From Trueperaceae bacterium (GTDB lineage Bacteria > Deinococcota > Deinococci > Deinococcales > Trueperaceae), in contig DASSXV010000043.1 in assembly GCA_035703635.1 (NCBI GenBank), positions 1 to 42,581 on the forward strand: a DNA stretch of 42,581 bases, in the 5' to 3' direction. Within the stretch, counting starts at the first letter, position 1; each line of letters starts with the position of its first letter. Below, one piece after another: positions 42,445 through 42,581 of the stretch. Below the pieces are notes generated by a model. That model made no database searches and was not told where the DNA came from. It was given only the letters and a program-made list of their open reading frames with translations. The position numbers were made by a program, and so were the translations under genes.

Positions 42445-42581
42445 ATGGCTAAGGGTGTTTTTGAGCGTACGAAGCCGCATGTGAATGTTGGGACTATTGG
42501 TCATGTTGATCATGGTAAGACGACGTTGACGGCTGCTATTACGTTTACGGCTGGTTCGGCTGATGCTTCTGTTGAGGTTCA
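42445..42581 (+). CDS. tuf: Elongation factor Tu, N-terminal part, truncated by the window edge (absent from the ORF track)
   Basis: [33 protein letters not shown]; follows the Thr-Tyr-Gly-Thr tRNA cluster. Confidence 0.99.

Follow-up and report, generated by a model that had tools for sequence, protein, structure and literature searches.

tuf and recA at the two ends of the contig

The window, i.e., the whole stretch of DNA that was analyzed, is the complete contig C36 (42,581 nt) of a Trueperaceae genome (G000) comprising 88 contigs, 2.9 Mb and 66.5% G+C. Its right end harbors the 5' part of a tuf gene for EF-Tu in a tufB-type locus (42445-42581, plus strand). The start codon is at 42445, and 45 complete codons extend to 42579, followed by 2 nt, before the gene runs off the contig; this part covers positions 1-36 of the EF-Tu profile. 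It is preceded by a leader of 123 nt (42322-42444, plus strand) and, further upstream, by a cluster of tRNA genes assigned by ARAGORN as Thr(TGT), Tyr(GTA), Gly(CCC) and Thr(GGT) (41794-42321, plus strand). At the left end lies recA on the minus strand, which also runs off the contig and covers positions 1-90 of the RecA profile. Upstream of recA, in the cinA-recA arrangement, is a cinA gene with ordinary codon usage (398-1843, minus strand; Pfam domains MoCF_biosynth, CinA_KH and CinA).

An earlier note on this DNA had stated that all tuf codons end in G or T, that this bias begins about at the start codon, that rpmE keeps C-ending codons and that the coding strands of tuf and recA bear the same extreme signature. 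All of this was borne out. The third letters of the 45 complete tuf codons are G (17) or T (28) and never A or C. The bias starts at codon 2 and the leader has an ordinary composition (A.21, C.28, G.33, T.18); the sole C-ending codon within the 48-codon scan match is the ATC just before the tuf ATG. In the G/T-ending zone of recA (3-263, minus strand, about codons 9-95), 85 of the 87 codons end in G or T (A 0, C 2, G 50, T 35). The first 8 recA codons (264-288, minus strand) have ordinary usage, and a comparison with contig C56 showed the sequence to be copy-specific from nt 270. The control gene rpmE (19665-19877, minus strand) has normal, C-rich third positions (A 4, C 37, G 25, T 5). The mean third-position G+T fraction of 2,165 ORF-derived genes from the same genome is 0.431 (sd 0.050, maximum 0.617), and relative to this gene mean the chance of 45 out of 45 codons ending in G or T is about 4e-17. 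Leucine is encoded by TTG every time in this part of tuf and never by CTG, so that the bias extends beyond third positions.

Since the third positions are G or T only, the codon-aligned antisense frame has no stops. Long spurious antisense ORFs of 100-414 aa are present opposite recA and tuf, in the window at 1-327 and 3-401 (plus strand) and in the congener G003 at 589497-590618 (minus), 835381-836562 (plus) and 1074694-1075935 (minus). The automated choice of ORFs took such stop-free frames over the real recA and tuf genes, and gene callers may annotate them. An overlapping antisense gene was rejected as coding, because the predicted protein lacks V, A, D, E, G, F, Y, C or W.

In a six-frame scan of all 88 contigs we looked for stretches of 30 codons of which 29 or more end in G or T. 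Five of the 28 matches are real in-frame genes, and all of these are tuf or recA: recA and tuf at the two ends of C36, recA at the start of C56 and the 3' end of tuf where C29 and C86 begin. The remaining 23 are dominated by G, and most of them contain stop codons or represent low-complexity frames. The recA 5' ends of C36 and C56 are identical over nt 1-269 except for nt 142 and then diverge. At nt 142 a conserved Asp (SLSVDVALG) in C36 is replaced by Val in C56, a change that may reflect either strain variation or a misassembly at the k-mer boundary (nt 141/142). Over 141 nt of the tuf 3' end C29 and C86 agree completely, and then C29 continues into an rpsJ context and C86 into an rpmG context; C30 and C82 have 141 nt of the recA 3' end in common. 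The last 141 nt of the window (42441-42581, plus strand) are common to the second tuf copy and form an overlap in the assembly graph, with loose ends and a unitig start at 42441. Such contig pairs with common ends of 141-269 nt are the outcome of a de Bruijn assembler at two-copy genes, and the interiors of these genes are missing from the bin. A blastn search did not find the fusA-tufA junction in this bin. The odd composition of the two genes, which serve as phylogenetic markers, breaks assemblies and could also mislead tests for horizontal transfer.

The stretch 41700-42581 is present in sequencing runs of 14 studies. DNA unitigs of the runs X1, X5 and X10 reach as far as 42470 and are followed by others that begin at 42441 (30-nt overlap); under the 31-letter bridging rule, they abut at the repeat boundary 42441 without bridging. 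The only bridging contig stems from the RNA library X15 (42266-42494) and spans the leader and tuf. Loose ends at 42441 in X5 and X10 lead to a different upstream flank. The depth of the tuf unitig is 1.3-2.0x that of its flank, a ratio that does not represent a copy number. In all four runs compared, position 42402 of the leader is A where the window has T, and a minor T>G variant is seen at the tuf third position 42495 in the RNA-library run, which exchanges one of the two preferred letters for the other.

A contig-end chimera of the assembly or a horizontally acquired cassette would fit the position of both biased stretches at contig ends and their abrupt junctions. However, the strict scan revealed the bias at just 5 of 176 contig ends, every one of them tuf or recA, and genes biased over their full length occur in a one-contig congener and in other congeners. 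The concern raised in the earlier note, that the bias might appear at contig ends regardless of content, thus did not materialize. The EF-Tu N-termini also follow each lineage, graded states of the bias occur within the genus and the order, and the stretch is present in the runs of 14 studies described above, so that an artefact or foreign DNA has next to no chance of being the cause. Conversion by sequencing chemistry, as with bisulfite, was rejected because C and A persist at codon positions 1 and 2. A back-translated or synthetic sequence was rejected as well, since the codon choice varies (GGT/GGG, ACG/ACT) and differs between species.

Gene specificity in a one-contig congener

The genome of the congener G003 is a single contig of 2.92 Mb with two full-length tuf and two recA genes, all of them biased. 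The third positions of its tuf copies are A.00, C.02-.03, G.57 and T.40, and over 405 codons the tuf genes of G003, G013 and G011 show A.00, C.01-.03, G.53-.60 and T.39-.44. An in-frame scan of the first 2.80 of the 2.92 Mb was passed by the two tuf and two recA genes only. The mean third-position composition of the 1,959 ORF-derived genes of G003 is A.087, C.463, G.346 and T.105, and the next most G/T-rich gene among them reaches 0.68. The third-position G-C skew of tuf is +0.82 versus a 99th percentile of +0.13.

The earlier note had reasoned from rpmE that expression level alone does not account for the bias, and had allowed for an ordinary expression effect if many other genes were alike. 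None of the other genes among the 1,959 comes close. The bias is not common to other highly expressed genes: rpmE has normal codons, and so do fusA, rpsJ, rplC and nusG adjoining tuf, with rpsJ using ordinary C-ending codons only 3 nt past the tufA stop. The inference of the note was therefore correct. We concluded that the bias of tuf and recA is real, inherited and gene-specific, and that it lacks an accepted explanation.

Ordinary translational codon adaptation to the tRNA pool or its modifications, being extreme in the most highly expressed gene, appears quite improbable on these grounds. It would benefit from C34 tRNAs for every four-fold box, which serve NNG codons well, and two-fold sites hold out longest against the bias, so translation does matter. 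However, the ribosomal-protein genes, fusA and nusG beside tuf are normal. Moreover, TTT, ATT, CAT, GAT, AAT and TAT share their G34 tRNAs with the C-ending partners, and tRNA supply cannot favor NNT over NNC because the same tRNAs read both. Synonymous choices that involve positions 1 and 2 (TTG, AGT, AGG) and even amino-acid replacements shift in the same way, and the most critical codons retain C. Like the known codon bias of highly expressed genes, the pattern concerns synonymous choice in the gene for the most abundant protein; unlike that bias, it favors NNT in two-fold boxes where NNC would usually be optimal, and is not shared by other such genes. The synonymous sites of tuf thus run against the tRNA-matched optimum, nearly to completion and strongly enough to alter amino acids, which points to a constraint on mRNA or DNA composition outside codon-usage theory.

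The tRNA set of the window's genome is standard. ARAGORN also called a suppressor-like tRNA with anticodon CTA, labelled Pyl (C4:9963-10039), and a tRNA-Gly with anticodon ACC (C16:70440-70527) in this genome; neither anticodon was called in 2.8 Mb of G003. Three genes near IS copies in G003 (2708890-2710128, 2719159-2721072 and 2398564-2400174) contain 50-codon windows with 6-10% A+C at third positions, while the whole genes are not extreme. Two large genes (3-6536, minus; 2730771-2732795, plus) have the opposite bias (C3.62-.69, G3.15-.23) and are the most C-skewed genes of that genome.

Copy identity, substitution spectrum and retained C

The two tuf copies of G003 are in direct orientation and differ by 1 mismatch in 1,221 bp (99.9%), with identity beginning 4 nt before the ATG. 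The two recA genes are in inverted orientation (589551 plus, 836433 minus) and share 982 bp at 100% identity. Near-identical coding sequences with diverged flanks (rpsJ versus rpmG contexts) are what concerted evolution leaves behind, and the assumption of the earlier note that tuf is duplicated and homogenized holds for the window's genome and for G003. The tufA and tufB genes of Salmonella and E. coli evolve in concert by gene conversion (PMC5485169). Relative to that system, the genes studied here are alike in having near-identical copies at a tufA-type locus (rpsJ following) and a tufB-type locus (tRNAs upstream, rpmG downstream); they differ in that single-copy genes are biased, too, and in that the bias ends short of the identity limits. 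Conversion alone predicts identity and not an extreme composition of one strand.

The limits of bias and identity do not coincide. The two G003 recA copies are identical from codon 10 onwards and biased from about codon 12; towards their 3' end the bias weakens beyond about nt 780 and has disappeared by nt 960, whereas identity continues to nt 1008. At the tuf 3' ends of the window's genome the bias stops at nt 117 and identity extends to nt 141. Identity hence exceeds the bias by 24 nt in tuf and 48 nt in recA, contrary to what the earlier note expected of a process linked to recombination. Its second expectation, that all multi-copy sequences share the skew, also failed: the IS families of G003 (1.3-1.7 kb, one pair 100% identical) show no bias. 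Conversely, the G/T-coded recA motif occurs once each, mid-contig, in G013 and G015, whose assemblies are contiguous, and tuf is present as one full-length gene with G+T endings of 0.84-0.96 in each of three Actinomycetota MAGs and one Aminicenantes MAG. Two of these single-copy loci, both from Actinomycetota, lie mid-contig behind fusA.

Within tuf, C is avoided at all synonymous options, e.g., by TTG over CTG and AGT for TCN. In G003 tuf, Leu is TTG in 25 of 27 cases, and TTT (12/13), ATT (16/18), CAT (11/11) and GAT (25/26) prevail in their boxes; AGG and AGT are raised. T makes up 37% of the four-fold sites in tuf of this genus. In less GC-rich lineages A-ending codons such as ATA and GTA persist, and because of this the common denominator across phyla is the loss of C with a gain of G, the loss of A being an extra of this genus. 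Overall, the sense strand of tuf has G.41 and C.14, compared to G.30 and C.36 in ordinary orthologues.

Four-fold sites with C in the outgroup became G 97 times and T 53 times in G003 tuf. In G024 the numbers are 137 and 14. The shift in other lineages is almost purely from C to G. At codon positions 1 and 2, C>G changes number 4 in EF-Tu and 12 in RecA, compared to 1 and 2 C>T changes. Replacements at these positions in the G003 lineage went from A/C to G/T versus the reverse in ratios of 16:3 (EF-Tu) and 33:11 (RecA), while control lineages with ordinary genes gave 1:8 and 2:14. The four-fold divergence between G003 and G013 is 22.5% for tuf and 45% for fusA and nusG.

In 41 aligned C-poor tuf genes, third-position C is close to zero along the body and is kept at particular codons: in the guanine-binding motif NKxD, Asn is AAC in 33 of 41 and Asp is GAC in 27 of 41 genes, and Asn of the KNMITG motif is AAC in 29 of 41. 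In genes with intermediate bias, 19 of 134 four-fold C but 44 of 65 two-fold C were kept. Towards the 3' end, C returned gradually over the last ~14 codons, and in 37 of 37 genes from many phyla, all with a body C3 of at most 0.15, C is more frequent among the last twelve codons than in the body. The ordinary 3' part comprises the last 11 codons in the window's genome and the last 7 in G003.

The mechanism favored in the earlier note was a strand-biased mutagenesis linked to repeats or recombination. In this reading, C and A would be deaminated on a sense strand that is often single-stranded due to recombination intermediates, R-loops or heavy transcription, and selection would keep the protein intact. 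The depletion of both C and A in the genus, together with 37% T at four-fold sites, has the direction of C>T and A>G, and both biased genes are repeats in the window's genome. The spectrum relative to outgroup tuf genes, which the note had suggested to determine, is not dominated by transitions, however: C>G exceeds C>T at four-fold sites (97:53) as well as at positions 1 and 2 (4:1 and 12:2), and other lineages deviate even more strongly. The leader and rpsJ, 3 nt after the tufA stop, are unaffected, as are other repeats such as the IS copies, single-copy tuf and recA are biased, the limits of bias and identity do not match, and C is retained at functionally critical codons. We therefore consider such mutagenesis improbable.

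Both inverted recA copies of G003 are G/T-rich on their sense strand, which excludes a force tied to replication. A force tied to the whole transcription unit is also excluded, since the leader is ordinary and rpsJ, whose co-transcription with tufA we infer from the 3-nt spacing, has C-ending codons; the switch occurs 7-11 codons before the tuf stop. Two known strand asymmetries can be compared in this respect. Transcription-associated asymmetry consists in an excess of C>T on the non-transcribed strand of expressed genes, and is small, unit-wide and driven by transitions. It is similarly tied to the sense strand and independent of the direction of replication, but the bias described here is near-total, stays within a single reading frame, spares rpsJ and includes many C>G changes. 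Vertebrate mitochondrial DNA has a genome-wide, replication-linked strand asymmetry that is attributed to deamination. There, too, the free sites of one strand have lost two bases almost entirely, to a comparable extent; the tuf and recA bias in contrast covers about 1 kb, is gene-specific and depends on the direction of coding. This leaves a directional force that acts on sense-strand composition inside the reading frame, i.e., either selection or a drive by conversion.

Biased gene conversion would be such a drive without adaptation: recombination between gene copies, genome copies or incoming DNA would favor the sequence with the G/T-richer sense strand. RecA pairs GT-rich single strands best, and this preference could be the cause. 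In the window's genome tuf and recA are the only long-standing converted gene pairs, and the bias amounts to 98-99% in two-copy lineages compared to 84-96% in the single-copy Actinomycetota. Changes go towards G/T no matter whether they are transitions or transversions. The first 9-11 codons of recA, which are copy-specific, are ordinary in two-copy species, while single-copy G013 is biased from about codon 4, and for this reason a conversion-linked force fits better at the recA start than selection for escape from Rho (see below). Against biased conversion stand the bias of single-copy tuf and recA, the ordinary composition (C3.58-.71) of two identical tuf copies in G020 and G027, the 24-48 nt of identity beyond the biased zone and the absence of bias from IS repeats. 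In addition, it is always the sense strand that is biased, and the fade over the last ~14 codons is also found in single-copy genes, where homology continues past the gene end. On balance, we regard this explanation as unlikely, although the contrast at the recA start gives it genuine weight.

Distribution and possible selection for escape from Rho

The bias is graded in the genus of the window's genome, ranging from near-total bias of tuf through intermediates (G001, G009) to one ordinary case (G006). At the G006 loci L028 and L041, both tuf 5' fragments are ordinary (C3.49-.56) and encode TTTTA where others have TTLTA. Either the tuf of G006 truly departs from the rest of the genus, or its bin contains a foreign contig. 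The order is graded as well: tuf is ordinary in G020, G027 and G028 and intermediate, rich in G and with C of.16-.21, in G024, G025 and G021. The neighbors of tuf in the intermediates (fusA, rpsJ, rplC, nusG and rplK) are balanced. A G/T-coded recA motif was found in 6 of 18 genomes of the genus. With this single motif and at most two mismatches allowed, none of 13 genomes from other genera of the order had a match, nor did any of 10 genomes with C-poor tuf from other phyla, where a partial bias would escape the search.

We searched other phyla, with one genome per species, using a degenerate pattern for thirteen EF-Tu codons that all end in G or T. At least 120 stretches matched. The titles among the matches listed include Trueperaceae, Gemmatimonadota, Nitriliruptoraceae, Acidimicrobiales, Aminicenantes, Gammaproteobacteria, Thermomicrobium, Longimicrobiales, Thermodesulfobacteriota and others. 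As the loci were chosen by a G/T-coded pattern, the sample is biased by design and gives no prevalence. For 80 loci of these at least 120 matches, a reading frame was found in 59, and in 40 of these the whole tuf has at least 0.80 G/T endings. The ORFs flanking the matched tuf genes have G/T endings of about 0.4-0.6, and C3 below 0.10 was reached by 29 tuf ORFs and 1 other ORF in 120 loci among the matches listed. All five complete chromosomes with C-poor tuf from other phyla carry two copies. C-poor tuf recurs independently in many phyla. A full-text literature search, with supplements outside its scope, found no published description of G/T-only or C-avoiding tuf or recA; early papers on Thermus tuf sequences reportedly remarked on a preference for G as third letter.

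Our preferred reading is that the composition of the sense strand or mRNA has long been under directional selection, sharpened by gene conversion, with escape from Rho as its likeliest purpose; we assign it a probability of roughly 40%. Selection rather than biased conversion is suggested as the force because the sense strand is always the biased one, single-copy genes are biased and the 3' fade recurs across phyla. A C-poor, G/U-rich sense strand or mRNA would be favored in tuf and recA alone. Translational selection would oppose the loss of C at critical codons, and concerted evolution would complete the bias where the gene has two copies. Weaker mRNA folding was rejected as the principal purpose and could be a minor one: the C-poor tuf mRNAs fold 12-15% more weakly (-0.36 versus -0.42 kcal/mol/nt), which is a small effect.

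Rho loads on C-rich, G-poor, unstructured RNA (rut sites). The composition of tuf (G.41, C.14 across the gene) is the exact opposite of a rut site, and it relaxes only where loading would be ineffective within the gene. The nascent tuf and recA transcripts might thereby be kept from serving as Rho substrates, and full-length mRNA would still be made when ribosomes trail RNA polymerase. The return of C at the 3' end fits with this idea, because a loading site there could not stop the polymerase inside the gene. Among possible purposes, escape from Rho appears the likeliest to us. With its C-poor, G-rich sequence tuf would fall into a putative class of Rho-resistant genes, a class that is proposed and not established; we are not aware of any gene reported to be protected from Rho through its choice of codons. 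Rho is present in the window's genome and was found in 30 of 31 genomes across the order. As relatives with ordinary tuf have Rho too, its presence is not informative here.

Some observations do not follow from selection for Rho escape. It does not predict that this genus avoids A as well, and the argument that the gene product is needed when translation lags gives no account of why the recA bias is confined to this genus. A C-rich, G-poor spacer lies directly upstream of a C-poor tuf in one Actinomycetota locus and counts against it. In the Nitriliruptoraceae MAG locus L311, the 90 nt upstream of tuf, i.e., the fusA-tuf spacer, are strongly rich in C/A and poor in G/T, opposite to the tuf body.

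In a wider version, which we consider rather doubtful, a hitherto undescribed selective regime would remove C, together with A in GC-rich lineages, from the sense strands of tuf in no fewer than ten phyla and of recA in this genus, so that the transcripts might become immune to Rho or to another reader of C-rich naked RNA. If true, the cell could rebuild its translation and repair capacity while translation fails, and gene conversion between copies would amplify weak synonymous selection. If the role of Rho holds, tuf would be a natural example of transcription processivity controlled via codon choice.

The Rho gene of the window's genome (C16:86217-87449) lies in an open frame of 586 aa. The corresponding frames have 505-791 aa in the genus compared to 414-447 aa in several other families of the order, which suggests that Rho of this genus may have a long N-terminal extension.
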